Positions 6,804-36,440 of a stretch of 64,000 nt of DNA are shown here, one piece after another (position 1 is the stretch's first letter; every line of letters starts with the position of its first letter). Both the position numbers and the translations under genes were made by a program. Under the pieces are notes generated by a model, which was not told the DNA's origin, did not search any database, and saw only the letters and a program-made list of their open reading frames with translations. Origin of the DNA: Patescibacteria group bacterium (lineage in GTDB: Bacteria; Patescibacteriota; Microgenomatia; UBA8517); the NCBI GenBank assembly GCA_018823885.1, contig JAHJHG010000009.1, positions 64,783 to 128,782 of the forward strand. The letters are read 5' to 3'.

Positions 6804-7415
6804 TTAGAGAGCCAGAGCGAGCGATATTAATATTAAGAGAATACCAGCTGCTCCACCGATAATGGTTGGGTAGGACACTCCGGCGTCAGGTAGCTCTGGT
6901 TCGGCAGTTGGTGAGCCGGTTGGAGTGGCAGTCGGACTTTCGGTTGCTGTTTCAGTGCAATCCTCTTCTTCGGGAAAGTCTTGATGGCGACAGGTATCCG
7001 TAGTCGCATAACAAATATAATTTTCGTCGACATCCTGACATTGAGCATCGGTTGTACATGCAGAATCACAAGCATAGGTTACTACTTCACCACAAGCGCA
7101 AGTTTCCTCCTCTGGACAATCTGGATTGACGCAAAGCAATTCACCTCCGACATCCTGACATTCTAGACCAGACGAGCAATTATCAGGAGTATCAGTACAA
7201 GCTTCGTAACAAATTGGCCCCTCGGGGATTGTAAGGGTAAATGTCAAAGCAGTACAGCTTTCAGGAGCCGCTGCTTTTGGTTTACTTGTTGGGGCAGTAG
7301 GTGCAACAGGCTCTTGTCTTAATTGATAAAGCCTTATTGCCGTAAACACAGCAATGCCGGCGAGTGCGATTGTTGCTATTACTATTAATATTGTTACGAT
7401 CCTTTTCTTATTCAT
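6804..7415 (-). CDS. small cysteine-rich surface protein: N-terminal signal/anchor, internally duplicated Cys module, C-terminal LPDAG + hydrophobic tail
   Basis: 203 aa; N-term MNKKRIVTILIVIATIALAGIAVF (TM); ~20 Cys in two repeated modules (..ECQDVGGELLCVNPDC.. / ..QCQDVDENYICYATTDTC..); C-term PT-rich linker then ELPDAGVSYPTIIGGAAGILLILISLALAL; last gene of the PilN-PilO operon. Confidence 0.6.
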   Translation of the reverse strand: MNKKRIVTILIVIATIALAGIAVFTAIRLYQLRQEPVAPTAPTSKPKAAAPESCTALTFTLTIPEGPICYEACTDTPDNCSSGLECQDVGGELLCVNPDCPEEETCACGEVVTYACDSACTTDAQCQDVDENYICYATTDTCRHQDFPEEEDCTETATESPTATPTGSPTAEPELPDAGVSYPTIIGGAAGILLILISLALAL

Positions 7416-7416
7416 A

Positions 7417-8613
7417 TTAGAACCAGCCTAAAGTTGTATGATGTATTTCCGCATTTATAGTAAATGTGGTTATGTCTTCTGGAATAGTATATTCGTCGTA
7501 GAATTCGTTAGTACTTGGTCTTTTTGTGGTAACTTCGGTTCTTAAGACTCCATTTATGGTGAATCTTGCTTTATCAAAACTTCCGGAATTAGTCGTACCC
7601 GCAACAGTAAAGCGGACAACATCACCAGCCACTAGACTTGAAAGATTTGTTATTGGGCTCCATTCGATATCAAACACACTTATATCTAAACAAGATGCGG
7701 TGGTTTCCGAGTCGTCCGAGTCGTCCGAGTTGTCATCACCTGGGTCGTCATAGACGTATGATCCGACACAAAATTTTGATGCAAAACTAGTACCAGCAGT
7801 TCCAGGTACTTCGTCTCCTGTACAACTAGGAGCGCTTTGAGGGCAAGTGCAACCGCTTGAACAAACTGGCTTTCCGTCAACTAATCCGATGCAGACTGGC
7901 CACCCACAATAGCCGTAATCGCCAATATGTATGCTTGGAGTTTGAGTGAAACATTGAGAAGTACTTGTATCATTTTCATCATCGGAATCGGAAGTTCCAC
8001 TACATTCGGTTGGTGTATTACCATCTGCGATACATTGTTCATAGTCCGAAAGTTCAGGTACTGATACAGCAACACAATATTTTCCATATGGCGTGGTCAC
8101 ACAATTACCGCTTTTGCACTCAGCGTCATAACTACAACGCTCTCCATTGTCTTTTAGGGATTCACTGTAGGGGATATAGGCTTCTTCTCTGATATCCTGT
8201 TGGTTTTGGACAAGAATTACACCTGCCCCGATTCCTCCAACTAAAACCAAAACCCCAAGAATTGTTGCAATCATCCTTTTACCCACGGGCTTTTTCCCTC
8301 CTGTATCGGAGGTTGTTATTACTGGTGGGATATCAGGAATTGTTTGAGTGCCCTCAGTTGCTCCTGTGACTTGAGCGGGTGTAGTTGTTTCTTCTGGTTT
8401 CTTTTCTTCAACCATTGGTGGAGGTGGAGAAACGGCTCCATCTTCCATTGGTGGTGGAGGTGTGTCAATCGCCTGACCCGAAATATCAAAAGGTGTAGCT
8501 GTTGGGGATGAAACAGGGGTTGTGGGCGCCGTTGTTGTAGCTGATTGGCCAACAATCGGTGTTCCTCCGGTGATTGGTTGATTTGTATTTGTAGCTTTGT
8601 CTTCGTCGGGCAT
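7417..8613 (-). CDS. membrane-anchored Pro/Thr-rich, cysteine-rich extracellular protein
   Basis: 398 aa; PT-rich N-terminal 110 aa, TM helix MIATILGVLVLVGGIGAGVILVQNQQ (paralogous to the anchor of the upstream 444-aa protein), then Cys-rich region (CxxxxCxSGNC, CSSGCTCP) and an acidic DDPGDDNSDDSDDSE tract; start may be the internal Met before the TM. Confidence 0.6.
   Translation of the reverse strand: MPDEDKATNTNQPITGGTPIVGQSATTTAPTTPVSSPTATPFDISGQAIDTPPPPMEDGAVSPPPPMVEEKKPEETTTPAQVTGATEGTQTIPDIPPVITTSDTGGKKPVGKRMIATILGVLVLVGGIGAGVILVQNQQDIREEAYIPYSESLKDNGERCSYDAECKSGNCVTTPYGKYCVAVSVPELSDYEQCIADGNTPTECSGTSDSDDENDTSTSQCFTQTPSIHIGDYGYCGWPVCIGLVDGKPVCSSGCTCPQSAPSCTGDEVPGTAGTSFASKFCVGSYVYDDPGDDNSDDSDDSETTASCLDISVFDIEWSPITNLSSLVAGDVVRFTVAGTTNSGSFDKARFTINGVLRTEVTTKRPSTNEFYDEYTIPEDITTFTINAEIHHTTLGWF
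7705..7737. repeat. 9-bp tandem repeat (tccgagtcg x2 + tccgagttg) inside the Cys-rich protein gene
   Basis: seen directly; encodes DDSDDSDDN acidic tract on the minus strand. Confidence 0.85.
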
Positions 8614-8632
8614 GTTTTAATAATACATTCCT

Positions 8633-9967
8633 TTAGGTTTTTCTAAAAGTAAAGAAACCAAGCGTCAAACTAAAAACAATTAGTCCTAATCCCATTATGG
8701 AGTATAAAATTGTCGGTTTCAAGCTTCCAGAATCTGGGATTCCAGAAGCAGTGGATGTAGGTGTTGCAGTTGGTGTTGCCGAAGCAGTAGGTGACGGACT
8801 TATAGTAGGTATTGGCGATGATGTAGGCGTTGCTGATGGCGTTGATTCAAAGGCTGGTCCTTCGGCTGCTTGAACTACGAAAGTGCGTGTCAGAGTTGTC
8901 AAAATCCCAGTAGCATCACGCCAGGTAATTGTAATTTTGTGCACTCCCTCGCTGAGTCCCTCAGGAGGACTCCAGCTCCAATCACCCGAAGAACTTATTG
9001 TTGTTTGGTCAGTAACGGGGTTGGACTCGACTGTTATAGTAATTGTTGTTCCAGGGGGGCCTTCACCGAAAAATTCGGGTTCGGTGCTCGTGACAATTTC
9101 TCCTTCCTCATGGCTTTCTAATGTGACCTTTTCTGTGGAAAGACCGGTAGTGTCGTCGTCTGTTATTTCAAATTTTGAAGATTCAGTTGCATCGTCAGGA
9201 AGATTGACGTTTGCTTTTGGAATACCCCCGATTTCACTAGCCGGTTCATTTTTAAAATCCAAACTTTCACCTAGAATAATTGGAGGAGTGGGTTTAGCTG
9301 AGGCTGGATAAATCTGAGCTGTGGCAACACCACGAGAACCCGCCTGGACAGATATTTCAATAAGAGTTGTGGTTTCGTTTATTTCGATAAAGGAAGATAA
9401 ATTCTGATTTCTTGCAGAGGAAATAGGGATGACCCAACTACCATTCTGTGAAGTTGTAGTTGACAAAGGACTTGCTCCAGCCAGTGTTATATAAACAATT
9501 GCTTTCTCGGCAGGGGTTCCGGTTGCCGTAAGAATTGTACCAGATATTGAATTTGAGATTGTTTGGCCAAAAAGCTCTGGGCCAGTAGTTATTTGCCAGG
9601 GAACTCCATTGTTGTCAAAAGTGGTCCCGTCCGAGCTTATTTTAAAAAAATATGTTCTATCAGGAGAGAGTCCTTGAGCGGTGACAGAGTGAGTTTCACT
9701 TATTTCACTTATTTCATTAAGCTCCGTTTTTGTTAGTGAGTTTTCGGTTTCTCCCCAAAGAATAAATCCGCCAGTTTCTTTATCAGTTGCCCAAGAGACA
9801 GTGAAAGAAGAGTCCGTTATATTTGTGATTCTTATATCTTTTGGCGAAGTCTGTGGAGTAGCTCCTAATCTAAAAATTTGTTTGTTTTGGACAAGAAGAA
9901 TTCCGGCTGCTAGACCAAAAACCAGAAGAATAATACCTAAGAAAGTGGGAATTTTGTTTTTTCTCAT
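8633..9967 (-). CDS. surface protein with N-terminal anchor, fibronectin-III-like domain and C-terminal IPDSG-TM-RKT sorting-signal-like tail
   Basis: 444 aa; N-term MRKNKIPTFLGIILLVFGLAAGILLVQNKQ; FN3-like segment (ITNITDSSFTVSWATDKETGGFILWGE...LSPDRTYFFKISS); beta-rich middle; PT-rich linker then GIPDSGSLKPTILYSIMGLGLIVFSLTLGFFTFRKT at the extreme C-terminus. Confidence 0.65.
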   Translation of the reverse strand: MRKNKIPTFLGIILLVFGLAAGILLVQNKQIFRLGATPQTSPKDIRITNITDSSFTVSWATDKETGGFILWGETENSLTKTELNEISEISETHSVTAQGLSPDRTYFFKISSDGTTFDNNGVPWQITTGPELFGQTISNSISGTILTATGTPAEKAIVYITLAGASPLSTTTSQNGSWVIPISSARNQNLSSFIEINETTTLIEISVQAGSRGVATAQIYPASAKPTPPIILGESLDFKNEPASEIGGIPKANVNLPDDATESSKFEITDDDTTGLSTEKVTLESHEEGEIVTSTEPEFFGEGPPGTTITITVESNPVTDQTTISSSGDWSWSPPEGLSEGVHKITITWRDATGILTTLTRTFVVQAAEGPAFESTPSATPTSSPIPTISPSPTASATPTATPTSTASGIPDSGSLKPTILYSIMGLGLIVFSLTLGFFTFRKT

Positions 9968-10323
9968 TGAATTATGTCTCCTGATTCTGTGGCTTCATCG
10001 GTTTCATTTGTCGCACTTTCTGTTGCCTGTTCTTGTTCTTCTGGTAATTGTGTGGGCGCAGGAGAGGCAGTAGGTGATGGACTGGGAGACGAAGTTAGAA
10101 TTATTTCTGCTAATTCATGTTCCTGGAAAAATAACTTATTAACAACTTTACTGAGTGTTATTGTATCGAGCGTGGGAGAAATAGGCTCCAATATTTCATC
10201 CGGGACTTTTATGGGAACCTCAGAAGTGAAAGAGCGATAGGCACTAAATCCAATCCAAAACAACACAGTGATTAGGGTTAATATTCCTAAAACTACCAAG
10301 TTGGGTTTCTTTTGCTTTTTCAT
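9964..10323 (-). CDS. small bitopic membrane protein with acidic Ser/Pro-rich C-terminus (pilus-operon component)
   Basis: 119 aa; MKKQKKPNLVVLGILTLITVLFWIGF TM, then SPSPSPTASPAPTQLPEEQEQATESATNETDEATE; start and stop codons overlap neighbours (translational coupling). Confidence 0.5.
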   Translation of the reverse strand: MKKQKKPNLVVLGILTLITVLFWIGFSAYRSFTSEVPIKVPDEILEPISPTLDTITLSKVVNKLFFQEHELAEIILTSSPSPSPTASPAPTQLPEEQEQATESATNETDEATESGDIIQ

Positions 10324-10994
10324 TTTTCTTCCGTATTTGAGTTCTCCTTAAGATAAGGTGTTCGGCCAGTAACCACAAGAACCAGATTTTGTGTCTCTTC
10401 CAGTTGCGGAGAAATGATATTGAGAGCATCGATTTTTACAGGTCTTCTCATGTCCTCCAAGGCGGAAAGAAAATTGACTACTCCTTGATAACTTCCAGCA
10501 ATACTTATTGAAAAAGTAATTCCTTTTGACTCTTCGGGTAGCGGTTGTAGTTCGTCTTTTGATCTTTTTTCCTTCTCATCACCAAGAAGAGTTATCTCGC
10601 CTATTGTAATTCCTAGTAAATTTACGGGATAACTTGTTGCAAGGCCCTCTACTTGTCGGACAAAAAGATCGGGCGCAGGGTTATCAGGAATGGCTGTTTC
10701 AAGAAGTTTGATTCGCGCCCCTTCTTGAATGTATAAGGTTTGTGCTTGTTGTAGATTTTGGATTTTTGTGTTCATTTTATCGACAGTTTCTTCTTTTGTT
10801 TCTATTTCTTTAAGAAGCTCGATAATAGTGAGGAGTGTTGGTTTTAGGGCAAAAAGAGCAAAAAAAGAAATTGTTACTAAAGTGAGAATTAATTCCAAAA
10901 AACTCTTTAAGTCTTGCCTCTGTTTGTAAATGTTTACGATATTCAAAAAATACGATCGATATCTTAGATAATCTTTTCTCCAGCCCAATGCCAT
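10320..10994 (-). CDS. pilO: type IV pilus assembly protein PilO-like
   Basis: 224 aa; short cytoplasmic N-term, one TM, coiled-coil (EIETKEETVDKMNTKIQNLQQAQ) then ferredoxin-like repeat segment ITFSISIAGSYQGVVNFLSALEDMRRPVKIDALNI resembling PilO cores; 1-nt gap from pilN. Confidence 0.65.
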   Translation of the reverse strand: MALGWRKDYLRYRSYFLNIVNIYKQRQDLKSFLELILTLVTISFFALFALKPTLLTIIELLKEIETKEETVDKMNTKIQNLQQAQTLYIQEGARIKLLETAIPDNPAPDLFVRQVEGLATSYPVNLLGITIGEITLLGDEKEKRSKDELQPLPEESKGITFSISIAGSYQGVVNFLSALEDMRRPVKIDALNIISPQLEETQNLVLVVTGRTPYLKENSNTEEK

Positions 10995-10995
10995 A

Positions 10996-11559
10996 TTATT
11001 TTCCTCCTTTGCTGTTTAGTGTCAATTTAAGCGAAAAAGTTAATAAAACTTGAATTTCTTTGTCCGTGCTAATTTGAGTTATGGCTACTTCCTCGAATTC
11101 GTCGCTCGCATCCAAATTTGCAACAAATTGAGCAATCCCTCTTTCGTTGGGCGAAACGCCCTCTATTTTTATGTCATCGCCAACAAAGGAAAAAGAAGAA
11201 AGGACAATCTCAGGGGGAACAAGTGAGGAGGTAGTATTTAAGTGGCCAGTAGTCGGCTTATCTACGGCTGTTAGTTCGGAGAAGATACTCAGCTTTTTTT
11301 GAGCACCCCGAAACTCGTTCTCAAAATCAACAGAAGCGACAAGGACGGCCTGCCTTTGCTTAATCAGGTCGTTTAAGTCAGCTGATTTTGCGTCAAGCCA
11401 AAAACGTGACAGAAAGACCATCATTACAAACACCTCTGTAATAATCACTATTACCCTGAAACTAGAAAGAAGCCAGGCTAAAACACGACCAAGTGTTGAT
11501 TGGGCAAACTCTTCCTGGGGAAGTAGGTTTATTCTATTTTTCTTTTTTCGGGCAGCCAT
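10996..11559 (-). CDS. pilN: type IV pilus assembly protein PilN-like
   Basis: 187 aa; N-terminal RINLLPQEE (the INLLP PilM-binding motif of PilN) followed by a single TM and periplasmic/extracytoplasmic domain. Confidence 0.7.
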   Translation of the reverse strand: MAARKKKNRINLLPQEEFAQSTLGRVLAWLLSSFRVIVIITEVFVMMVFLSRFWLDAKSADLNDLIKQRQAVLVASVDFENEFRGAQKKLSIFSELTAVDKPTTGHLNTTSSLVPPEIVLSSFSFVGDDIKIEGVSPNERGIAQFVANLDASDEFEEVAITQISTDKEIQVLLTFSLKLTLNSKGGK

Positions 11560-13829: not shown

Positions 13830-13868
13830 TTGACACGAATTAGCACTCATGCTAATCTTCTGCTAATG
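13830..13868 (+). promoter_or_regulatory. -35-like TTGACA followed by CIRCE-like inverted repeat (TTAGCACTC-N9-TTCTGCTAA) abutting the hrcA ATG
   Basis: TTGACA at 13830-13835; TTAGCACTC 13840-13848, 9-nt spacer, TTCTGCTAA 13858-13866 (6/9 match to the right half GAGTGCTAA of the CIRCE consensus). Confidence 0.5.
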
Positions 13869-19990: not shown

Positions 19991-21388
19991 ATGGAAAAAT
20001 CTCGACAACCAATAGTTACAGTTCTAGGCCATGTAGATCATGGGAAAACAACACTTCTTGATGTTATAAGGAAGACTTCTGTAGCAAAAAAAGAAACTGG
20101 CGGAATTACTCAAGGTATTGGGGCTTCTATGATAACGACGAAAGAAGGAAAAAAAATTACTTTTATTGATACTCCTGGACACGCCGCCTTTGCTCAAATG
20201 CGTTCTAGGGGTGCAAAATTGGCTGATATCGCCATATTGGTAGTTGCAGCAGATGATGGAGTCAAGCCTCAAACAAAAGAAGCAATTGATTATATAAAAA
20301 AAGCGGAAATCCCCTTCATTGTTGCTATTACTAAGATCGATATTTCCTCCGCTTCCATAGAAAGTGTAAAAGGACAGATTGAGACAGAGGGTATTTTGTT
20401 TGAAGGAAGAGGGGGAGATACTCCGTTGGTACTTCTCTCGTCAAAAGAAAACAAAGGAATAAATGAACTTCTGGAGATGATTCTTTTGGTTTCTGAAGTC
20501 AACGAGATTAAGGCGGATGAAAAAGCAGATTTGGAAGCGGTTGTTATCGAGACAAACAAAGATGCAAGGGGCTCACTTGTCTCAGTTGTTGTAAGAAATG
20601 GAACACTCTCTGTGCGAGACGAAATTTCAACAGATGAAACTGGCTGTAGGATAAAAGGCTTGTTTGACAAGGAAGGAAAGCCTATGAAGAAGATTTTCCC
20701 TGGAGAGCCGGGGTTAATATTGGGTTTCAAAGAGCTCCCGCTTATAGGATCGCAAGTGAGACTTGCAACTGGAAGCAAAACAATAAAGGAAGAAAAAAGA
20801 ATGGGAGCAAAGCCTTTTTTGGTAAAAGAGGAACAACTACCAGCCGTTTTTAAGGCTGAAAGCGCAGGGGCACTAGAGGCACTTTTATTAAATTTACCAG
20901 CGGATGCAATAGCTGTTTCTTCTGGGGTTGGGCCAATTAACGAGTCCGACGTCTTTTTTGCAAAATCAGCGGGGGCAGCTTACATTTTTGGTTTTGAGGT
21001 AAAAACAGCTCTTTCTGTTAAGAAACTAGCAGACACAGAAGGAGTGAAAATAGAAACTTTTGACATTATTTACAAACTTCTCGAAAGATTAGAAGAGCTA
21101 ATTAAAGAAGGGCAATCGGTAATACTAGGCAAAGCAGAAATTGTGGATTCCTTTCCTTTTAATAATAAGAAAGTGGCGGGATGTAAGGTTATTTCAGGAA
21201 AGATTAGCATGAAAGACACAGCTGTATTAATGCGAAAAGATAGTGAGTTGGGTAAGGCAAGGGTAGTTTCATTACGGAAAGAAAAAAGTACCATTCAGGA
21301 GGCTAAAGAGGGTGAGGAATTTGGAGTCATTTTAAGTCCGCAACTTGATTTTGAAAAAGGGGATATGTTAGTATCCGTCAAACAGTAA
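19991..21388 (+). CDS. infB: translation initiation factor IF-2, very short form (G domain + C-terminal domains only)
   Basis: 465 aa; [12 protein letters not shown] (G1), DTPGH (G3), TKID (G4); positioned directly after nusA as in the nusA-infB operon; lacks the long N-terminal region of typical IF-2. Confidence 0.8.
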   Translation: MEKSRQPIVTVLGHVDHGKTTLLDVIRKTSVAKKETGGITQGIGASMITTKEGKKITFIDTPGHAAFAQMRSRGAKLADIAILVVAADDGVKPQTKEAIDYIKKAEIPFIVAITKIDISSASIESVKGQIETEGILFEGRGGDTPLVLLSSKENKGINELLEMILLVSEVNEIKADEKADLEAVVIETNKDARGSLVSVVVRNGTLSVRDEISTDETGCRIKGLFDKEGKPMKKIFPGEPGLILGFKELPLIGSQVRLATGSKTIKEEKRMGAKPFLVKEEQLPAVFKAESAGALEALLLNLPADAIAVSSGVGPINESDVFFAKSAGAAYIFGFEVKTALSVKKLADTEGVKIETFDIIYKLLERLEELIKEGQSVILGKAEIVDSFPFNNKKVAGCKVISGKISMKDTAVLMRKDSELGKARVVSLRKEKSTIQEAKEGEEFGVILSPQLDFEKGDMLVSVKQ

Positions 21389-21405: not shown

Positions 21406-22248
21406 ATGGATAATTCCTTTGGGTCAATAATAAATTCTGCCAACTCGGTGCTTATCTTATTGCCAACAAAACCTTTCTTTGATCAAGTTGCTGCAGGTCT
21501 TTCTTTGTATTTGAGCTTAAGAGAGAAAAAGGACGTCTCAATTTCTTGTCCTTCGCCAATGGTTGTTGAGTTTAATAGGCTAGTTGGTGTTAATAAAATA
21601 ACCCAGGAACTTGGAAACAAGAACTTGGTGGTGAGACTAGTTGATTACCCGGCAGAAAATATAGAGAGAGTAAGTTATGATATTGAGAGTTCCGAATTTA
21701 GGCTCACTATCATACCTAAACCGGGCTTTCCCTCTCCCTTAAAGGAGCAAGCAAATCTTAGTTATTCTGGTGTTTCAGCGGATGTAGTTATATTAATTGG
21801 GGGGGCAAACAAATCGCATTTTCCTGCTGTTATTTCCTCAAAAGAGTTAATTGGAGCAAAGATGATACATATTGGAACCAGGGCTTTGCCTATTTCACCC
21901 GAGAAAAGTATTATGTCGTTTGCGAGACCAGCCTCTTCTTGTTCGGAGATTGTAGCCGATTTAATCAAAGAAAGTGGTTTTGTCTTAGATGTTGATGTTG
22001 CAACAAACCTACTGGCAGGAATAGAAGAAGGAAGTAATAAATTTTCTAGTTCTGAGGTTGTGGCCAACACTTTTCAAGCAGTTGCTGATTTAATGAGAGT
22101 TGGTGGAGTAAGGAAGCAAAAGTTTTCTCACCAAAGAGAGGCTTTTCCTCCAGGGTCTATTCCAGGGGAAAAGGTTGTTGAAGAAAAGAAAAAAGCCCCA
22201 AAGGATTGGCTAGAACCAAAAATATATAAAGGGACATCAATTAGCTGA
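21406..22248 (+). CDS. DHH/DHHA1-like protein (NrnA-like fold) with degenerate catalytic motifs
   Basis: 280 aa; architecture and spacing resemble NrnA-type DHH phosphoesterases but the DxD and DHH motifs are replaced (DQV, IHIGTRA); occupies the rbfA/nrnA position after infB. Confidence 0.4.
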   Translation: MDNSFGSIINSANSVLILLPTKPFFDQVAAGLSLYLSLREKKDVSISCPSPMVVEFNRLVGVNKITQELGNKNLVVRLVDYPAENIERVSYDIESSEFRLTIIPKPGFPSPLKEQANLSYSGVSADVVILIGGANKSHFPAVISSKELIGAKMIHIGTRALPISPEKSIMSFARPASSCSEIVADLIKESGFVLDVDVATNLLAGIEEGSNKFSSSEVVANTFQAVADLMRVGGVRKQKFSHQREAFPPGSIPGEKVVEEKKKAPKDWLEPKIYKGTSIS

Positions 22249-22361
22249 AAATCCTTCTGGGTTGTCAAGGAAATATTTTCGTGATATCATAATCCCTGAT
22301 GTAAAACCGGGTTCTCCCGCCACCTTTGGTTAAGGGGATTACTCAGTTTTTCATGACGCTT

Positions 22362-22631
22362 ATGGCACTATCAAAAGAAGACAAACAAAAAATTGTAAAA
22401 AAATTTGCCCGAGAGAAAAGCGATACTGGTTCTCCAGAAATTCAAGTAGCACTACTCTCCGTACAAATAGATAAATTGGCTGACCACCTTAAGAATCATA
22501 AAAAAGATGTTCATTCAAGAAGAGGACTTCTTTCTATGGTGGCAAAAAGAAGAAGATTATTGACTTATCTTCGCGATCGTGATGAAAAACGATACAGAAG
22601 CCTCCTAGAAGAATTAGATTTAAAAAAGTAA
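22362..22631 (+). CDS. rpsO: 30S ribosomal protein S15
   Basis: 89 aa from ATG 22362 ([56 protein letters not shown]...); ORF table extends to a TTG at 22326. Confidence 0.85.
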
Positions 22632-22641
22632 AAAATATTAA

Positions 22642-24870
22642 ATGAAAAAAATCGAAAAAAGTATTGATTTGGGTGGTAGAAAACTGACCCTTTCAACAGG
22701 ACAACTTGCACAACATGCGAGTTCCGCAGTTTTGGCTACTCATGGCGAAACTGTTGTGTTGGCAACAGTAGTTGCTTCTGAACTAAAAGAAAGTATTGGA
22801 TATTTCCCTCTTTTTGTTGAATACCAAAAGAAGCTATACGCTGGTGGAAGAATTAAGGGAAGTCGCTGGGTAAAGCGAGATGGTAGGCCTACCGATGAAG
22901 ACGTATTAGTTGCTAGGCTTATTGATAGGTCGATTAGACCTTTGTTCCCAAAGAATTACAAAAAAGAAGTACAAGTAATTATTACAGTACTCTCCGTAGA
23001 TTTGGAAAGTACGCCTGACATGGTAGCAGGATTGGCTGTTTCTGCGGCATTAGCAAGTTCTTCAATTCCTTGGAATGGACCAGTATCAATGTTAAAAGCT
23101 GGACTAAAAGATGGCAAATTTATTGTTAATCCTGTGAGATCTGATCTCCCAACATCAGAGATGGAACTGGTTGCTTCGGTAACAAAAGATGCAATTGTGA
23201 TGATCGAAGCAAAAAGCAATGAAGTTTCAGAAAAGAAAATGATTGAGGGAATTGAATTTATTCAAAAAGAAAGCAAAAAAGTAATCACCTTAATTGATGA
23301 TTTTGCTAAAGCAGTTGGAAGGAAGAAAGATGTTTTATTAGAAGAGAAGAAAGACTTAACACTAGAAAAGAAAATTGAAAAACTAGCCAGCGATAAGATA
23401 AAAGATTTAATAAAAAACATGTCGGTCATGAAAGCTGGCTACTCTGACCTTAATGCAGCCAAAAAAGCCATTATGGATTCAGCCGATGAGATGGAAAAAG
23501 AGAAATATGGTGAGATTTTTGAAGAACTGTTCACAGCAGAAGTTAAAAAAATGATTCTTTCAGGCAAAAGACCTGATGGTAGAAAGCCAGAAGAACTTAG
23601 AGATCTTTCTGCTGAGGTGGGAATTCTTCCTAGAACACACGGTTCAGCTCTTTTTAATAGGGGACAAACTCAAGCACTTTCAATTGCTACGCTGGGGTCC
23701 TCATCCTTAGAGCAACTACTTGAATCAGCTGAAGGAGAAGAATCAAAAAGATATATACATCATTACTCAATGCCCCCATTTTCAGTTGGTGAAACAGGAA
23801 GAATTGGCTATCCTTCAAGAAGAGAAGTTGGGCATGGAGCATTGGCTGAAAATGCATTACTGCCAGTAATTCCTTCCAAAGAGGATTTTCCATACACAAT
23901 TCGCGTTGCTACAGAAATATTAGGCTCAAATGGTTCAAGCTCAATGGCTTCGACTTGTGGATCTACCCTATCCCTAATGGATGCGGGTGTTCCTATAAAA
24001 GCACCAGTCGCGGGTATTGCCATGGGCTTGGTAATTGAAAACGAAAAGAAAAGCGTGGTTTTAACAGATATTGTGGGAATGGAAGATGGGAATGGAGATA
24101 TGGATTTTAAAGTAGCCGGAACAAAAGAAGGCATAACCGCTTTACAGCTCGATGTTAAAACATTGAAGTTAACAGCTTCAATTCTTGAGAAAGCTTTCAA
24201 ACAAGCCAAAGAAGCAAGATTAAAAATCTTAGAAGTAATGCTTAAGGCGCTTTCTGAATCACGCGAAAAAGTATCTACATATGCTCCAAAAATAAAGGTA
24301 ATTAAAATCGATCCAGCGAAAATAGGGGAAATCATTGGTCCAGGAGGCAAGATGATAAGAAAGATAATTGCAGAAACTGGTGCACAAGTGGATGTTGAAG
24401 ATGACGGAAGCGTGAGTCTTTCAGGTACGAAGGAGGAGGAAGTAGCAGCTGCTATAGAAATGATTGAGGGCCTAACAAAAGAGGTCGCTGCAGGTGAGAT
24501 TTATGAGGGAGAGGTCAAAAGGATTCAGCAATTTGGTGCCTTTGTTGAAGTCTTGCCTGGTAAAGATGGGCTGGTTCACGTCTCGGACATGAGTAAAGAT
24601 TTTGTTAAAGATCCTTCAGATATAGTTAAAATAGGCGATAAAGTTCAGGTTAGAGTTAAAGAAATTGATAATCTAGGCAGAATTAACCTTTCAATGTTAC
24701 TTGATGGCGACAAGGATAAAAAATCAGATAGCAAACCTCCTTATAGAAAGCCAAATAAAGATTTTGACCGAAAGAGGTCTTTTCAAAGAGGAGGAACAAC
24801 GAATAGGAAATCCTCAGGGCCACACTTTCCGACTAGTAGATATTTAGAGGAAAAAAAGAAAAACTTCTAA
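22642..24870 (+). CDS. pnp: polynucleotide phosphorylase (PNPase)
   Basis: 742 aa; two RNase PH domains, KH (IGPGGKMIRKIIAETGA) and S1 (GEIYEGEVKRIQQFGAFVEV) domains; basic C-terminal tail. Confidence 0.95.
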   Translation: MKKIEKSIDLGGRKLTLSTGQLAQHASSAVLATHGETVVLATVVASELKESIGYFPLFVEYQKKLYAGGRIKGSRWVKRDGRPTDEDVLVARLIDRSIRPLFPKNYKKEVQVIITVLSVDLESTPDMVAGLAVSAALASSSIPWNGPVSMLKAGLKDGKFIVNPVRSDLPTSEMELVASVTKDAIVMIEAKSNEVSEKKMIEGIEFIQKESKKVITLIDDFAKAVGRKKDVLLEEKKDLTLEKKIEKLASDKIKDLIKNMSVMKAGYSDLNAAKKAIMDSADEMEKEKYGEIFEELFTAEVKKMILSGKRPDGRKPEELRDLSAEVGILPRTHGSALFNRGQTQALSIATLGSSSLEQLLESAEGEESKRYIHHYSMPPFSVGETGRIGYPSRREVGHGALAENALLPVIPSKEDFPYTIRVATEILGSNGSSSMASTCGSTLSLMDAGVPIKAPVAGIAMGLVIENEKKSVVLTDIVGMEDGNGDMDFKVAGTKEGITALQLDVKTLKLTASILEKAFKQAKEARLKILEVMLKALSESREKVSTYAPKIKVIKIDPAKIGEIIGPGGKMIRKIIAETGAQVDVEDDGSVSLSGTKEEEVAAAIEMIEGLTKEVAAGEIYEGEVKRIQQFGAFVEVLPGKDGLVHVSDMSKDFVKDPSDIVKIGDKVQVRVKEIDNLGRINLSMLLDGDKDKKSDSKPPYRKPNKDFDRKRSFQRGGTTNRKSSGPHFPTSRYLEEKKKNF

Positions 24871-24913
24871 ATAGTTGCCACTTCGTGATACATTTTAGTA
24901 AGGAAATCAAAAT

Positions 24914-25960
24914 ATGGACTCTGCCGGCCAGGAATTAGTTAGCCTCAAAGAAAAAGTTAATGCCTTATCTCTTCCTGAAAAACTTAAAGAAGGAATAATG
25001 ATTCGTTTGGACCAATTAGTAAAACTTACCAACTCACCGACTTTCCTGCCAGAATACGATAGAATTGGCCGCTACATAGAATGGATTGCTTCGATTCCTT
25101 GGAGCAAGAAAACAAAGGACATTCTAGATTTGGAGCGAGCTAGAGAAATTCTTGATAAAAACCACCATGGGCTAGATGAGATTAAAGAGAGAATTTTAGA
25201 ATATATTTCAACAATGAAGCTAAAGCAAGAAAAAGGAGAAGGAGAAGACATTATGAGAGCGCCGATATTGTGTTTTGTTGGTCTTGTGGGTACAGGGAAA
25301 ACCACAATAGCAGACTCTATTTCTCAAGCTTTAGGTAGACGACTTGCGAGAATTCCTTTTGGAGGAATGGGCGATGCTCTAGATTTAAGGGGTCAATCAA
25401 GAATGCATCCAGAGGCAGAGCCAGGGAAAATAATTAAGGCGCTTATTTCTTCCCAGAGTAAAAATACGGTTATTCTGCTTGATGAAATAGACAGGGTTAC
25501 TGATGCTGGGCGAGCTTCAATAATGGGAGTTTTGGTTGAACTTCTTGACCCTGAACAAAATCATGCTTTTATTGATCATTATGTTGATTATCCGGTTGAT
25601 CTATCTGAGGTTTTGTTTATTGCCACGGCCAACAATACTACCAATATTTCGACCGCTGTTTTAGATAGACTGGAGCCTATTTCCATGCCTTCATATACAG
25701 ACGCAGAAAAGATTATTATTGGAAGAAAATACATGCTTCCCAAAGTATTAAAGGAATCAGGCGTAGACGAAAGAGCTTTGACCATTGAAGAAAATGCTTG
25801 GGCGCTAATTGTTCGACCTATTGGTTATGACGCTGGAATAAGAACATTGGAAAGAACAATTGAAGGAATTGTTAGAAAAATCGCAAAATTAATTGTTGAA
25901 GGGAAGGGTCAGGCTTATAAAATAACATCAGAAAATATTAAGGAATATTTACCTCAGTAA
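24914..25960 (+). CDS. Lon-family AAA+ ATPase module without N-terminal LAN domain and without protease domain
   Basis: 348 aa; co-linear with the Lon ATPase region (IEWIASIPWSKKT...HHGLDEIKERILEYIS...ILCFVGLVGTGKTT (Walker A) ...VILLDEIDRV (Walker B) ...ELLDPEQNHAFIDHY...FIATANN...LDRLE); stop codon where the Ser-Lys protease domain would begin; next gene starts 16 nt later. Confidence 0.75.
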   Translation: MDSAGQELVSLKEKVNALSLPEKLKEGIMIRLDQLVKLTNSPTFLPEYDRIGRYIEWIASIPWSKKTKDILDLERAREILDKNHHGLDEIKERILEYISTMKLKQEKGEGEDIMRAPILCFVGLVGTGKTTIADSISQALGRRLARIPFGGMGDALDLRGQSRMHPEAEPGKIIKALISSQSKNTVILLDEIDRVTDAGRASIMGVLVELLDPEQNHAFIDHYVDYPVDLSEVLFIATANNTTNISTAVLDRLEPISMPSYTDAEKIIIGRKYMLPKVLKESGVDERALTIEENAWALIVRPIGYDAGIRTLERTIEGIVRKIAKLIVEGKGQAYKITSENIKEYLPQ

Positions 25961-25975
25961 GAAGTACAAAGTTAA

Positions 25976-26602
25976 ATGACAAAAGAAATAAAAACAAAAA
26001 AGTTAAAAGAATTGTATATAAAAATGAAGGCAGACAAAACACTTCCGCTTCAGGAAGAGGCAGCAAACTTGGTATTTGGAACAGGTAATCCTGCGGCAGA
26101 AATTATGTTTATTGGCGAAGGACCTGGGTATTGGGAAGATCAGAAGGGGGAGCCATTTGTTGGAAATGCAGGCAAGTTTTTAGACCAATTACTTCATTCG
26201 ATCAAACTACCTCGAGAATCAGTATTCATTACAAATGTGGTTAACTATAGACCCCCTGAGAATAGAGATCCGTTGCCCGAAGAGATTGCTGCCTTCGGGC
26301 CATATATAGACGAGATGATTGATATAATAAAACCGAAAATTATTGTCACACTAGGTCGGTTTTCCATGGCGAAATTTATTCCGGGCGTAAGAATAAGTGA
26401 TGTGCATGGAAAGAAAAAATTAATAGATTGGAAGAAGCGTAAAATAACAATCATTCCAATGTATCATCCAGCGGCGGGTTTGAGGAATGGAGAGGTCAAA
26501 AGAAGAACGATTGATGACTTTGGTAAGATTCCTGATATATTAACTGAAGTTGAGCAAACGGAAGTTGTACAAACTGAGGTTGAACAAATGGAGTTGATAT
26601 AG
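25976..26602 (+). CDS. uracil-DNA glycosylase, family 4-like (no cysteines, so no Fe-S cluster)
   Basis: 208 aa; GTGNPAAEIMFIGEGPGYWEDQKGEPFVGNAGKFLDQLL (GEGPG motif A region) and HPAAGLRN motif B; protein contains zero Cys. Confidence 0.7.
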   Translation: MTKEIKTKKLKELYIKMKADKTLPLQEEAANLVFGTGNPAAEIMFIGEGPGYWEDQKGEPFVGNAGKFLDQLLHSIKLPRESVFITNVVNYRPPENRDPLPEEIAAFGPYIDEMIDIIKPKIIVTLGRFSMAKFIPGVRISDVHGKKKLIDWKKRKITIIPMYHPAAGLRNGEVKRRTIDDFGKIPDILTEVEQTEVVQTEVEQMELI

Positions 26603-26617
26603 GATTATTAATATACG

Positions 26618-28270
26618 ATGGCAGGCCTAAAATTTATTGCCCTTTCGGGGACAACTGACGTAACAGAAAATTTATACGTTTACGAATATGGGAACGATAT
26701 GATTATTGTTGATTGTGGAATAGGTTTCCCAGAAGCCGAAATGTATGGGGTTGACTTAGTGATTCCGGATTTTAGTTACATTGTAAAAAACAAACACAAA
26801 CTTCGAGGAATACTAATTTCCCATGGACATGAAGACCATCTTGGCGCATTGCCATTTCTTCTTAAAGATGTCCAGGCCCCTATTTATGCTACAAAGCTAG
26901 TTGCAGGATTTATTCAAGACAAATTCTCCGATCACAAAATGAAGGGGGTAAAAATTAATGTTATCGATCCAGACAAAGATACTTTGTCGCTAGGTGTTTT
27001 TAAAATACAAATGTTCAGGGTTTCCCATTCAGTTCCAGATGGTGTTGGCTTTGCCATAGATACACCAGAAGGGAGCATCTTCCATGTTGCTGATTACAAG
27101 TTTGATTGGACGCCTGTTGATGGAAAGCCTTTTGATATAGCTAGAGCTGCTACACTGGCTTCTTCGGGGGTTTTGGCAGTAGCCTCTGATTGTTTAGGCG
27201 CAACGACTCCAGGCTACACACAAAGCGAAAAAGAGATAGAAACACAAGTGGGACAGATTGCAAGAGACGTAAAAGGTCAAATTTTTTTTACCACAATTTC
27301 TTCGAATATTTCAAGAATGCAGCAAGCAATAAATGTAGCCAAGATGTTAAATCGCAAAGTTGTTTTTGTTGGTCGTTCAACTGAAGCGAAAGCGCAAATT
27401 GCAAAAGACCTCGGATATTTGCACGCTCCTGAGAATTTAGTAGTACCCTTCAAAAAAGCAGGGAAGATATCGAAGCAAAAAATCATGTATATTATTTCTG
27501 GAAGTTACGGTCAGCCTGGCAGTGCTCTTTATAGAGTGGCTAACGCAGAACACGATTTCTTGTCAATAGGTGAGGGCGATGCTGTAATCTTTTCTTCTGA
27601 TCCAGCCCCACCAGGATCAAAGGCGAATGTTGATGGAGTGGTAGATAGATTAATTGAGATTGGCGTAGATGTGCATTATTACGAAATGCAAGAAGATCTC
27701 CATGTTTCGGGGCATGGTTGCCGAGAGGATATTAAAATGCTTTTTGCGCTCCTGAAACCGAAATATTATATCCCCATCGGTGGAACTATAAGGCATATGC
27801 GGGAATATAAAAATATTGCGATTAGTATGGGCGCTGCATCAGAAGCAACATTTGAGCTTATGCCTGGAGATATTATTGAGTTTAATAATGCTAGAGGAGT
27901 GCGTGCAGGGAAAATCGACGTAAAAAGTGTTTTGGTAGATGGATTAGGGGTCGGAGATGTTGGCAATGTGGTGTTAAGAGATAGAAAGAAACTGGCGAGG
28001 GATGGGGTTGCTATTGTTCTTCTTCAATTAGATAGGTTGGGCAATAAGCTCATTGCCAGCCCAGAAGTGATAAGTCGTGGCTTCGTGTTTGAAAAGCAAG
28101 AAAAAGATTTTTTAGCTGAATCAGCAAATCTTCTTGTAAGAGAATTGGAGAAAAAAGAACGTCTCGATAGACATGTTGTGAGACGTATTACTATCGACTT
28201 CTTAGAAAAGTATTTCTTCAGACAAACAGGTCGTAGGCCCATGATTCTTCCAGTTGTGGTCGAAGCTTAA
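26618..28270 (+). CDS. rnj: ribonuclease J (metallo-beta-lactamase / beta-CASP RNase)
   Basis: 550 aa; ISHGHEDHLGALPFL (HxHxDH), beta-CASP motifs, C-terminal domain. Confidence 0.9.
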   Translation: MAGLKFIALSGTTDVTENLYVYEYGNDMIIVDCGIGFPEAEMYGVDLVIPDFSYIVKNKHKLRGILISHGHEDHLGALPFLLKDVQAPIYATKLVAGFIQDKFSDHKMKGVKINVIDPDKDTLSLGVFKIQMFRVSHSVPDGVGFAIDTPEGSIFHVADYKFDWTPVDGKPFDIARAATLASSGVLAVASDCLGATTPGYTQSEKEIETQVGQIARDVKGQIFFTTISSNISRMQQAINVAKMLNRKVVFVGRSTEAKAQIAKDLGYLHAPENLVVPFKKAGKISKQKIMYIISGSYGQPGSALYRVANAEHDFLSIGEGDAVIFSSDPAPPGSKANVDGVVDRLIEIGVDVHYYEMQEDLHVSGHGCREDIKMLFALLKPKYYIPIGGTIRHMREYKNIAISMGAASEATFELMPGDIIEFNNARGVRAGKIDVKSVLVDGLGVGDVGNVVLRDRKKLARDGVAIVLLQLDRLGNKLIASPEVISRGFVFEKQEKDFLAESANLLVRELEKKERLDRHVVRRITIDFLEKYFFRQTGRRPMILPVVVEA

Positions 28271-33515: not shown

Positions 33516-35738
33516 ATGGATTTAAAAAGTTTTTTATCAACAAAAGAAGATAAATCGGTTGAATATTACTGGGCTTTGGTTATAGAGCCGGAGTGGGTGC
33601 AGGCTGGAATTTGGGAAATTGTGGAAAATAAAGCTCGGGTCATTGCAGTTAGCCCCCCAGCGGCGTGGGCTTCTGAAGAAGAATTGACAAGCGCTTGTGA
33701 CACAGTTCTTTCTTCTGCTGTTTCCTCTTTCCCGGAAGATGCGAAAGAGCCTTCAAAAACTGTCTTCGGCGTATCTTCAACTTGGGTGTCAAAAGGGGAG
33801 ATAAAAGTAGAATATTTAGAGACTCTAAAGAAAATTTGTGCAGAGCTTTCTCTAACGCCGGTAGGCTTTGTTGTTTTACCGGAAGTGATGGCTCACTTGA
33901 TTAAATCAGAAGAGGGGTCTCCGCTCAGTGGTGTGGTTTTGGGGGTTGGAAGTCAAAACATTGAACTCTCGATTTTTAGATTGGGGAATTTGGTTGGTAC
34001 CGCGAATATTGCAAGAAGTGTATCTGTGGTTGATGATGTAGCGGAAGGTCTGACGAGATTTGCAGACGGAGATAATTTGCCTTCACGATTTCTTCTTTAT
34101 GACGGAAAAGAAGGAGAGCTTGAAGAAACAAAACAAGCTTTACTTAAAGCAAATTGGAGTAATTATGAAAAGATAAAATTCCTTCATACTCCTAAAATTG
34201 AGGTTATTACACCCAAAAGAAAAGTTCATGCAGTATCTTTGGCTGGAGCATCGGAGATTGCTGATGTTTCCTTTCTTGAATCAAAGAATGAGGAAAGACA
34301 GGAAGAAAAGGTTTCTTCGAAACCTGACCTTATGTCCACGGCGGTAAGTCCCGCAAAACCTGAAGATGTAGGGTTTGTGATTGGACAAGACGTGGTTTCT
34401 GCACAGGGACGTGAGCCCGCGGTCGATGCGATTGAGAAGTCAGCTCAAGTAGAAGTACAAAAAGAATCGATAGAGAACATACGAGATAAGAAGGTGACGC
34501 AACAACCTGGAGGATTCAAAAGTAATTTTGTTTTAGATATTTTTAGAAAAATGAAACTAAATATTGCTTCTCTTTCGGCAAAAAAACCAAAAGTAAAAAT
34601 GGGTGGCAAGAGAACGCTTGCCATTGGGGGCGGGTTTCTTGTTTTTCTCATACTCATCGGTTTTATCTCTTGGTGGTTCTTTCCCAAGGCAACGGTTACT
34701 ATTTATGTTTCTCCTAAAAAACTTGATGAAAAAATGACAATTTCCGTAGATTTAAATATTTCTGATTCCAACTTTTCGAAAGGGATACTCCCTGGAAACA
34801 TAATTGAAACGACCGTATCGGGTGAGAGAACGACACCGACTAGTGGGACAAAAACAATTGGAGAGACAGCCAAAGGGAGTGTGACAATTCAAAACGGAAC
34901 TGCTCAGGCGTTAAAACTTCCAGCGGGTACTTTTATATATTCTGCGAATGATTTAAAATTTGCCCTTGCAGCTGAAGCTTCGGTGTCTGCCGCTCTTTCG
35001 CCTAGCTCACCTGGGACGGATACTGTTGAGGTCGAAGCAGCCGGTATTGGTGCGGAATACAATTTAGCGAAAGATGAGAGTTTTTCCGTTGGGAATTATC
35101 CTAAGGCAGAAGTTGATGCGGTGGCGATATCAGATTTTTCAGGAGGGTCAAGCCGCCAAATATCAGCTGTTTCAGAAGAAGATATGGATGAGTTAGAAAA
35201 CGATTTAATAGAGGAGCTTCTTGAAGAAGCAAAAAATGAATTAATAAAAAAAGCTTCAGAAGACCAATATTTAATTGAAGAATCTATGGAAACTACTCCT
35301 TCCACAAAGAGTTTTAGTAACAAAGTGGGCGATGAGGCAGACAACCTAAAGCTGTCTCTTTCCTTGGATGTAATAAGTTTGGTGGTTGAAAACCTAGCAC
35401 TTTCAGATTTTGCAAAAGAGGTTCTAAAAGACAAAATTCCTTCGGGATTTGTTTTAAGAGAAGATCAAATTGATATGCGTTTTGAACTGGAAGGAGAGGA
35501 CGATGAAGTATATGAACTAATTGTTTACATGGAAGTAAACCTTTTGCCTGAGATGAAACCTGATGAGATTGCCAAAGAAATCGTAGGTAAAAGAACTTCT
35601 CTCGCGAAAGATTATTTGACCTCAATCTCAGGATTTACGAGAGCAGAGATAAATTTAAAGCCACAATTACCCGGATGGCTTGGTACGCTTCCGCATGTTG
35701 TAAAGAATATAGAAGTAGAGCTTGCTGCTGAACGGTGA
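33516..35738 (+). CDS. large bitopic membrane protein; cytoplasmic N-domain with possible FtsA/PilM-like actin-fold features, extracytoplasmic C-domain
   Basis: 740 aa; single TM (LAIGGGFLVFLILIGFISWWFF) near residue 365; N-domain segments (YYWALVIEPEWVQAGIW..., SGVVLGVGSQNIELSIFRLGNLVGTANIARS) reminiscent of the two beta-sheet cores of FtsA/PilM-like ATPases but lacking phosphate-binding Asp/Gly motifs; C-domain acidic with coiled-coil-like stretch. Confidence 0.55.
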   Translation: MDLKSFLSTKEDKSVEYYWALVIEPEWVQAGIWEIVENKARVIAVSPPAAWASEEELTSACDTVLSSAVSSFPEDAKEPSKTVFGVSSTWVSKGEIKVEYLETLKKICAELSLTPVGFVVLPEVMAHLIKSEEGSPLSGVVLGVGSQNIELSIFRLGNLVGTANIARSVSVVDDVAEGLTRFADGDNLPSRFLLYDGKEGELEETKQALLKANWSNYEKIKFLHTPKIEVITPKRKVHAVSLAGASEIADVSFLESKNEERQEEKVSSKPDLMSTAVSPAKPEDVGFVIGQDVVSAQGREPAVDAIEKSAQVEVQKESIENIRDKKVTQQPGGFKSNFVLDIFRKMKLNIASLSAKKPKVKMGGKRTLAIGGGFLVFLILIGFISWWFFPKATVTIYVSPKKLDEKMTISVDLNISDSNFSKGILPGNIIETTVSGERTTPTSGTKTIGETAKGSVTIQNGTAQALKLPAGTFIYSANDLKFALAAEASVSAALSPSSPGTDTVEVEAAGIGAEYNLAKDESFSVGNYPKAEVDAVAISDFSGGSSRQISAVSEEDMDELENDLIEELLEEAKNELIKKASEDQYLIEESMETTPSTKSFSNKVGDEADNLKLSLSLDVISLVVENLALSDFAKEVLKDKIPSGFVLREDQIDMRFELEGEDDEVYELIVYMEVNLLPEMKPDEIAKEIVGKRTSLAKDYLTSISGFTRAEINLKPQLPGWLGTLPHVVKNIEVELAAER

Positions 35739-35756: not shown

Positions 35757-36440
35757 ATGGACAATAAACTTTTAAGAATCGCCGCAATTATTTCTGGAAT
35801 TTCAGGGATAGTAATTCTATTTTCTGTTGTTCTCCCCATTGTTTCTTACCAGTCGATTTCAAATCAGAAATATCCATCCCTTTTAAGCCCTATTGTTCAA
35901 AGTACTTCAAAGGTCACCCTAGAGGAAGTTGACTATACAAAGGCAAGTAATTGGTTTATTGACAACAAAGACACGAGTTTTTCAACTTCAAGTATTTCTC
36001 ACTATGTTATTTCTATTTCTAAGTTGGGAATAAAAAAAGCAACGGTTACAATTGGGGGAGAGGATCTGTCAGGAAGCCTTGTTCAGTACCCTGGTACCGC
36101 CTTGCCGGGAAAGAACGGGAATGCGGTTATTTTTGGTCATTCAATCTTGCCTCAGTTTTATGACCCTGAAGATTATTTGTCAATTTTTTCTACCTTGCCA
36201 ACTCTTGATGAAGGAGACGAAATTCAACTTGATTATGATGGTGTAGTTTATAAATATATAGTGGAGAAAATGTTTGAGGTGTTGCCGTCAGACATAGGGG
36301 TTTTAGAACAAGACAAAAGCGATTCATTTTTAACACTTGTGACTTGTGTTCCTCCGGGGCACCCCTTAAAACCAAAAAGATTAATAATTAGGGCTAGAAT
36401 AGTGCCCATAGAACAAGCAAATGCGAATATTAGCAATTGA
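35757..36440 (+). CDS. sortase family transpeptidase
   Basis: 227 aa; N-terminal TM anchor; catalytic His context (NAVIFGHSILP), active-site TLVTC motif (TLVTCVPPGH) and downstream Arg (RLIIRAR). Confidence 0.75.
   Translation: MDNKLLRIAAIISGISGIVILFSVVLPIVSYQSISNQKYPSLLSPIVQSTSKVTLEEVDYTKASNWFIDNKDTSFSTSSISHYVISISKLGIKKATVTIGGEDLSGSLVQYPGTALPGKNGNAVIFGHSILPQFYDPEDYLSIFSTLPTLDEGDEIQLDYDGVVYKYIVEKMFEVLPSDIGVLEQDKSDSFLTLVTCVPPGHPLKPKRLIIRARIVPIEQANANISN

Follow-up and report, generated by a model that had tools for sequence, protein, structure and literature searches.

A 64-kb stretch from the genome of a Patescibacteria group bacterium (assembly GCA_018823885.1, contig JAHJHG010000009.1, positions 64,783 to 128,782; the whole of it is referred to here as the window, with positions counted from its first nucleotide) has been found to carry a gene for a stand-alone Lon-type AAA+ ATPase. 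The gene lies at 24914..25960 on the forward strand, begins with ATG, ends with TAA and encodes 348 amino acids (AA), giving a 38.9 kDa protein with an isoelectric point (pI) of 5.6. There is very little doubt that this protein is the AAA+ module of LonA without the LAN domain and without the S16 protease domain. The comparisons below argue that it is a vertically inherited, functional descendant of the LonA protease, from which the LAN/long-helix region and the S16 peptidase would have been lost. The explanation that fits best as a whole -- derivation from LonA, an ATPase kept, a peptidase lost, and service as a non-proteolytic remodeller or chaperone -- seems to us evenly poised between right and wrong. 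The exact protein is already public as MBU0572580.1, "AAA family ATPase [Patescibacteria group bacterium]", while members of its cluster in IMG are labelled "ATP-dependent Lon protease".

Using Pfam, only AAA (PF00004) and Lon_lid (PF22667) are detected, with no match to Lon_C (PF05362). The alignment to the NCBIfam model TIGR00763, "endopeptidase La", is confined to positions 256-571 of its 795, with 325.6 bits against a cut-off of 608.05, and NF008053 gives 246 against a cut-off of 891; the protein lies below these whole-protein LonA cut-offs and does have the Lon-type AAA+ module, with the Lon lid and the LDPEQN segment. Our own profile of 778 positions, built from 59 full-length Lons, is matched at positions 246-578, and the Lons in the PDB align through their residues ~244-579 (36-40% identity across the 348 AA, E 4e-75 to 1e-68). 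A preliminary description of this DNA, made from its letters, had placed the start of the open reading frame (ORF) within the end of the N-terminal helical region and its stop at the point where the protease domain would start, the whole being co-linear with the Lon ATPase region, and these alignments bear it out. The reading frame begins at Lon position ~244-246, leaving no LAN domain (PF02190) and no long coiled-coil helix, and where LonA has its S16 Ser-Lys peptidase there is a stop codon and then a gene of the UDG superfamily. Neither Pfam nor NCBIfam has a curated family that covers this protein. The modelling proposed in the preliminary description has been carried out: an AlphaFold2 monomer model is confident (predicted local distance difference test score 89.6), and its top structural matches are Lon AAA+ modules. 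Among them 6N2I, residues 235-584 of E. coli Lon, is co-extensive with it, with a template modelling score of 0.87 normalised to the query and 0.90 normalised to the target. The domains recognised are as follows.

24914..25099, forward strand: N-terminal three-helix bundle, AA 1-62, from the Lon alignment and AlphaFold2 helices at 3-17, 22-37 and 44-60; its counterpart in LonA is helices alpha8-alpha10 of HI(CC), which in E. coli are residues ~244-305
25268..25678, forward strand: AAA+ alpha/beta (nucleotide-binding) domain, PF00004, AA 119-255, from Pfam
25751..25906, forward strand: Lon-type alpha-helical lid subdomain, PF22667, AA 280-331, from Pfam

The two ends of the gene are well defined. 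Its start is marked by the following elements.

24896-24901, forward strand: in-frame TAG-TAA stops, four codons upstream of the ATG
24900-24904, forward strand: AAGGA, a Shine-Dalgarno-like motif 9 nt before the ATG

Since in-frame stops lie just upstream of the ATG, no alternative start can supply an N-terminal extension or a hidden N-terminal domain. At the other end, the UDG-superfamily gene that starts at 25976 shares the frame of the ATPase gene, with two stops between them (25958-60 and 25973-75).

When the 59-Lon profile was run with hmmsearch against all six-frame stop-to-stop segments of the window, the ATPase ORF was the only match, in agreement with the earlier view that the protease domain has not simply been split off downstream. 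A tblastn search of the window with approximate E. coli Lon N and P query sequences gave only noise (E>2), and Pfam scans of 30 other window proteins detected no S16, ClpP, HslV or FtsH; a sortase and an M24 methionine aminopeptidase are the other peptidases found there. The same profile found no LAN or S16 part within 10 kb on either side of 17 related loci, and in about 25 contexts, including four of distant members, no gene for an S16 or other partner peptidase is co-located. No ClpP-type IGF docking tripeptide occurs in the ATPase, the sole [ILVM]G[FL] match being inside the Walker A strand. A two-component AAA+ protease would be recognised by an adjacent partner, an aromatic-hydrophobic pore loop and a docking motif, none of which is seen here.

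For the residues of the ATPase site, counts were made in three sets: a close family of the 120 best homologues, 12 distant protease-less sequences, and the 59 canonical Lons. The full set of active AAA+ motifs is present (Walker A GxxxxGK[T/S], Walker B hhhhDE, sensor-1, arginine finger and sensor-2), and Lys129/Thr130, Asp190/Glu191, Arg252 and Arg310 are unchanged in all three sets, the catalytic residues remaining constant even among protease-less members down to 39% identity.

25280..25303, forward strand: Walker A GLVGTGKT, AA 123-130, with P-loop Lys129/Thr130 kept and the Lon-typical Pro-Pro replaced by Leu-Val
25469..25486, forward strand: Walker B VILLDE, AA 186-191, with Asp190/Glu191 invariant
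25538..25585, forward strand: ELLDPEQNHAFIDHYV segment, AA 209-224, the strongest Lon signature, the same in the protease-less and canonical groups
25631..25633, forward strand: sensor-1 Asn240, in 119/120 close (one has Lys), 12/12 distant and 59/59 canonical sequences
25667..25669, forward strand: arginine finger Arg252, acting in trans, in 120/120 close, 12/12 distant and 59/59 canonical sequences
25841-25843, forward strand: sensor-2 Arg310, within the Lon lid

We take the ELLDPEQNHAFIDHYV segment to be the pre-sensor-1 region. The divergent Walker A pointed out in the preliminary description is a fixed feature of the close family, GLVGTGKT being found in 120/120 close members, against GPPG in 56-58 of the 59 canonical Lons. 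Because the arginine finger, which acts in trans, has been retained, the protein presumably works as an oligomeric ring.

The loops that line the axial pore have not been kept in the same way. The preliminary description considered the ATPase segments alignable throughout; this holds for the ATPase residues, but it overlooked that the loops with which Lon grips its substrate have been replaced.

25388..25429, forward strand: remodelled pore-loop 1, RGQSRMHPEAEPGK, AA 159-172, with Tyr replaced by His165, Gly by Glu167 and Met/Leu by Glu169
25493..25531, forward strand: remodelled pore-loop 2, RVTDAGRASIMGV, AA 194-206, with the aromatic, Phe, Tyr or Trp in Lon, replaced by Gly199 and Lon G-D-P by A-S-I

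In pore-loop 1, the Lon sequence RGHRRTY[VI]GA[ML]PG[RK] stands against R-G-Q-S-R-M-H-P-E-A-E-P-G in the window protein. The Tyr is present in 59/59 canonical Lons, while the close family has His in 103 of its 120 members, Tyr in 8 and Val in 3; among 31 diverse protease-less members the position is occupied by His (9), Phe (7), Ser (4), Asn (3), Arg (2) and others. The flanks are far more uniform in those 31, with Ser at 162 in 26, Pro at 166 in 22, Asp or Glu at 167 in 29, Glu at 169 in 28, Pro at 170 in 29 and Gly at 171 in 30, which gives a consensus for the protease-less family of R-G-x-S-[RK]-x-x-P-[DE]-A-E-P-G. The aromatic position of pore-loop 2 holds Phe, Tyr, Met or Leu in the canonical sample, Gly in 120/120 of the close family and Ala, Gly or Leu elsewhere, and Lon G-D-P has become A-[DS]-I in the protease-less family. 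The net change per subunit is a loss of two basic residues and of the aromatic paddle, and a gain of two conserved acidic residues. In Meiothermus taiwanensis LonA, Tyr397 and Trp431 touch the substrate in a spiral staircase and both are needed for degradation (PMC8503904); the window protein has neither the pore-loop-1 Tyr nor the pore-loop-2 aromatic of that translocation machinery. Since the flanking positions are strongly conserved in their new state, the pore, as read from the alignments, is re-specified rather than decayed.

The 120 best homologues are all of 347-349 AA, with 71-93% identity, and those with named sources come from Woesebacteria, Microgenomates or Patescibacteria. A search of representatives at 50% identity brought in additional clusters without the protease, 348-410 AA long and in some cases 453-669 AA, with only AAA and Lon_lid in all of them; such distant relatives occur in Levybacteria, Shapirobacteria and Dojkabacteria (cluster P0144 being from Dojkabacteria). 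The additional N-terminal residues of the longer forms are of low complexity, rich in Gln, Pro, Ser and Thr, and contain no LAN domain. In P0139 (669 AA; 6844-8853 of record L005), P0128, P0133 and P0149 these N-terminal extensions amount to 100-320 AA, are Gln/Pro- or Ser/Thr/Pro-rich, and occupy the place of the Lon substrate-binding domain. At the 17 related loci, which come from other assemblies, the match to the Lon profile always ends at position 575-580 of 778, and the matches listed in a scan of GTDB genomes, most of them canonical Lons, include at least 13 protease-less loci.

In the same genome pairs, identity to the window copy is 51-65% for the ATPase, 46-55% for PNPase, 50-60% for FtsK, 37-45% for IF-2 and 35-45% for RNase J. 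The ATPase is at least as conserved as PNPase and FtsK and, judging from these identities, is under strong purifying selection. In a neighbour-joining analysis the protease-less proteins (n=31) were split from the canonical ones (n=59, a set not known to include Lons of Patescibacteria) in 185 of 200 bootstraps, with within-group divergences of 0.81 and 0.78, respectively. The nearest full-length Lons that bear names are from Anaerolineales and Clostridiales. The flanks of the two closest full-length Lons (P0167 and P0175) offered no counterpart, since the contigs were too short or unrelated to the syntenic site.

Two further observations were made on the sequences gathered, all of them from outside the window. 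Many of the representatives P0121-P0169 are proteins of 889-1675 AA in which two or three tandem Lon-type AAA+ modules are followed by one Lon protease domain (A-A-P, A-A-A-P); their Walker A is mostly GPPG, and they resemble a "type II" Lon architecture. Also, GTDB records L008, L009, L011, L012, L013 and L017 are titled "uncultured Gammaproteobacteria" and L016 "uncultured Pseudomonadales", though they carry a Microgenomates-type gene row with proteins 50-60% identical to the NusA, PNPase and FtsK of the window; these seven look like mislabelled metagenome-assembled genomes (MAGs) of Patescibacteria.

The gene order in the window is murJ, then hrcA-grpE-dnaK-dnaJ, then nusA-infB-x-rpsO-pnp-[ATPase]-udg-rnj-ftsK-rodZ-like-alaS, with the hrcA operon about 7 kb upstream of the ATPase gene. 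The immediate neighbours are these.

22326-22631, forward strand: rpsO, upstream of the ATPase gene
22642-24870, forward strand: pnp (PNPase), with a 43-nt gap to the ATPase gene
25976-26602, forward strand: UDG-superfamily gene (Pfam PF03167), downstream of the ATPase gene
26618-28270, forward strand: rnj (RNase J), downstream of the UDG gene

The row nusA-infB-x-rpsO-pnp-[ATPase]-(udg)-rnj-ftsK-rodZ recurs in Woesebacteria, Levybacteria, Shapirobacteria and other Patescibacteria MAGs, its junctions being short or overlapping, and fragments of it are also found around members of 45-58% identity. More distant members show pnp...[ATPase]...ftsK-rodZ with insertions, M16 or M23 peptidases as neighbours, or unrelated genes. 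A different association is seen in two GTDB records, L014 and L017, whose ATPases are 60% identical to each other: there the ATPase gene lies head-to-head with groES-groEL. On a Dojkabacteria contig, groES-groEL lies 4.7 kb downstream of the ATPase gene. No CIRCE/HrcA operator was detected at <=3 mismatches near the ATPase gene or in the groES-[ATPase] intergenic regions of L014 and L017.

Several features of this neighbourhood may be recorded in their own right. The sole CIRCE-like inverted repeat of the window, at 13840-13866 on the forward strand with 3 mismatches to TTAGCACTC-N9-GAGTGCTAA, lies right where the hrcA ORF begins, in front of hrcA-grpE-dnaK-dnaJ. In the distant relative L089 (1751-5995), pnp and the ATPase gene are kept apart by an insertion of four genes: one of DUF2079, an HTH_17/PIN_3 pair resembling a toxin-antitoxin system, and one of DUF4012. 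The UDG-superfamily protein (25976-26602, forward strand) has a GEGPG-type motif that recalls the family-4 UDGs and not one Cys in its 208 AA; family-4 UDGs normally hold a 4Fe-4S cluster by means of four Cys. Between infB and rpsO, where bacteria usually have rbfA and truB, lies an ORF of 280 AA (21406-22248, forward strand) with no Pfam match, present at that place in all related loci with 24-36% identity. IF-2 (19991-21388, forward strand) is shortened to 465 AA and begins directly at the G domain, as do its relatives of 463-511 AA, and PNPase ends (24700-24870, forward strand) in a Lys/Arg-rich C-terminal tail of about 55 AA past the S1 domain (...DGDKDKKSDSKPPYRKPNKDFDRKRSFQRGG...EEKKKNF). 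Farther off, in an otherwise housekeeping region, a 740-AA protein with a weak Baseplate_J-like Pfam match (33516-35738, forward strand; E 2.6e-05) is followed by a sortase gene (35757-36440, forward strand). PilN- and PilO-like genes lie beside one for a 444-AA protein with immunoglobulin-like and fibronectin-type domains (10323-11559 and 8636-9967, reverse strand); the PilN/PilO-like region probably belongs to a cluster for a type IV pilus. A defence-system AAA+ protein, such as BrxL, was considered by way of PADLOC and rejected: the best match, to DolB at 29.9 bits, is a weak, generic AAA+ one, and the context is core housekeeping.

As to function, the preliminary description offered two possibilities, a pure unfoldase or chaperone on the one hand and a partner for a separately encoded peptidase on the other. 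The role of a non-proteolytic, ATP-driven protein remodeller or chaperone is the best reading of the present data, and on the residues kept and replaced it is a reasonable possibility that falls just short of an even chance; a canonical threading unfoldase, or one paired with a peptidase, is disfavoured by the pore loops and by the want of a partner in the contexts searched. The protein would assemble into a Lon-like hexameric ring and hydrolyse ATP, and would be unable to degrade proteins. Polypeptides would not be threaded by the canonical Tyr and aromatic paddles, the axial loops having been re-specified, and the clients would be a narrower set, possibly basic proteins or segments. Expression would be together with housekeeping genes for RNA decay and translation, or next to groES-groEL. 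As a precedent, human LONP1 is reported to counter aggregation in a way that requires ATP hydrolysis and is independent of its protease activity (PMC8368198), and to cooperate with mtHSP70 in folding (PMC7801493).

Several points weigh against this interpretation. The chaperone-like activity of LonP1 has been assigned in a preprint (10.64898/2026.05.06.723147) to the N-domain, independently of the ATPase, and the N-domain so credited is absent from the window protein. Some distant members keep Phe (7/31) at the pore-loop-1 Tyr position, and some of the protease-less family may therefore still thread. It is because of that preprint and those retained Phe residues that the proposed function has been put no higher. 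In crystals, EcLon(235-584) forms only an open helical hexamer (PMC6722904), so a stable ring has to be assumed for a protein that lacks the N and P domains. Promoter and terminator scans of the window were at chance level, and the conserved gene order may reflect inheritance only and not function. A bolder version of the proposal, which we consider rather unlikely, is that Microgenomates and related members of the candidate phyla radiation (CPR) turned their only Lon, once an AAA+ protease, into a pure ATP-driven chaperone; the chamber and the N-terminal receptor would have been shed and the pore rewired from basic and aromatic to acidic and proline-rich, selecting basic clients, for example ribosomal and RNA-binding proteins from the surrounding operons.

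Four other explanations have to be set against the remodeller or chaperone. The gene could encode the unfoldase ring of a split Lon, serving an S16 or other peptidase encoded elsewhere in the way that ClpX serves ClpP and HslU serves HslV; these two members of the HCLR clade show that two-gene designs function, and the ATPase residues are all kept, as is the C-terminal end of the lid. In two-component AAA+ proteases, however, the genes of the two partners usually adjoin each other, and no Lon_C or LAN-like sequence was found in the window, around the 17 loci or in four further contexts; there is no IGF docking tripeptide, and the translocating residues have been lost (Tyr to His, the pore-loop-2 aromatic to Gly), a loss which itself speaks against an unfoldase that threads in the canonical manner and supplies a peptidase. 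With no partner in about 25 contexts and the residues for delivery to a chamber gone, a paired peptidase is decidedly improbable. It is unlikely, too, that the ring aids RNA decay or DNA transactions, whether PNPase, RNase J, UDG or FtsK is its partner or its target. In favour of this, the gene keeps its place directly between pnp and rnj, udg being present or not, in loci that span 45-65% protein identity, and its junctions are short or overlap; no terminator-like site was detected between pnp and rnj in the window (in a scan that was at chance level overall), and the ATPase region of Lon binds DNA. Against it, the protein is mildly acidic (the family has a median pI of 5.66, the corresponding part of canonical Lons one of 6.85), and the acidic residues gained in the pore loops are unfavourable to the threading of nucleic acid; the nusA-infB-rpsO-pnp row is a widespread bacterial operon, so that adjacency may be historical, and other members adjoin groES-groEL or lie in unrelated contexts.

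That the gene is a decaying, functionless remnant of lon might be suggested by the loss of both flanking domains and the variability at the pore-loop Tyr position, but it is highly improbable, and the pattern of conservation all but refutes it: 120 homologues keep to a length of 347-349 AA, the catalytic residues are invariant down to 39% identity, conservation matches that of PNPase and FtsK, and the pore loop has acquired a new conserved motif, which is not drift. An assembly or sequencing artefact, with a frameshift or false stop cutting a normal lon, is refuted as nearly as such a thing can be. There are stops on both sides of the ORF and no protease-coding sequence in any frame of the window, and the identical architecture appears in independent assemblies from NCBI, ENA, JGI and Logan; the frameshift, read-through or sequencing error against which the preliminary description had warned is likewise excluded by the 120 homologues of the same length and the 17 loci that end at the same profile position.

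No description of a protease-less Lon, nor of Lon in CPR/Patescibacteria, was found in the literature, though sequences of the family are already public under generic or wrong names. The Lon family is defined there by the fusion of ATPase and protease, all Lons being described as holding both domains (PMC9569914), while the present gene keeps the motor alone throughout a whole bacterial lineage. If active, the protein would be a natural minimal system for what the Lon ATPase ring does without degradation, with a bearing on the chaperone activity of mitochondrial Lon; it would also give an example of AAA+ pore loops being re-specified, and correct the automatic IMG annotation. The family raises the question of how CPR bacteria, with their reduced genomes, run cytosolic protein quality control. 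Should the conversion of Lon into a chaperone prove true, it would be a natural protease-to-chaperone transition inside one AAA+ family and a natural system isolating the long-debated protease-independent function of Lon.

Among known systems, the LonA proteases (E. coli Lon, B. subtilis LonA, Meiothermus taiwanensis LonA and human LONP1; MEROPS S16) share with the window ATPase the three-helix bundle, the AAA+ domain and the Lon lid, and are identical to it in Walker B, sensor-1, arginine finger, sensor-2 and the LDPEQN segment. They differ from it in having the LAN/long-helix N region, the S16 domain, the pore-loop Tyr and aromatic, and the GPPG Walker A, and the window ATPase scores half the curated TIGR00763 cut-off. 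ClpX and HslU, like the window ATPase, are single AAA+ modules without a fused peptidase. Their pore loops are aromatic, they bear elements for docking to a peptidase, and clpP or hslV is usually the neighbouring gene; none of these features was found for the window ATPase or the related loci. LonB/LonBA also have no LAN N-terminal domain (PMC9569914), but they are membrane-anchored and have a protease domain, neither of which is true of the window ATPase. For mitochondrial Lon (LONP1/Pim1), a chaperone-like activity in folding and anti-aggregation that depends on ATP but not on proteolysis is reported (PMC8368198, PMC7801493). A Lon without its protease could retain such an activity; the enzymes in which it was demonstrated are full-length and have, unlike the window ATPase, the N-domain and canonical pore loops. 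Its counterpart from the laboratory is EcLon(235-584), which consists of the C-terminal three helices of HI(CC) with the NB and H domains (PMC6722904). The structure 6N2I has the same domains, and the window ATPase is exactly the unit excised from E. coli Lon by limited proteolysis; the one is a laboratory fragment with canonical pore loops, the other a natural, conserved product whose pore loops appear re-specified. LonC of Meiothermus taiwanensis, which has lost one Lon activity and is described as having a chaperone-protease dual function (PMC3391209, PMC13069640), is the mirror image of the window ATPase: there the protease is kept and ATPase activity is absent, while the window ATPase keeps the ATPase residues without the protease.

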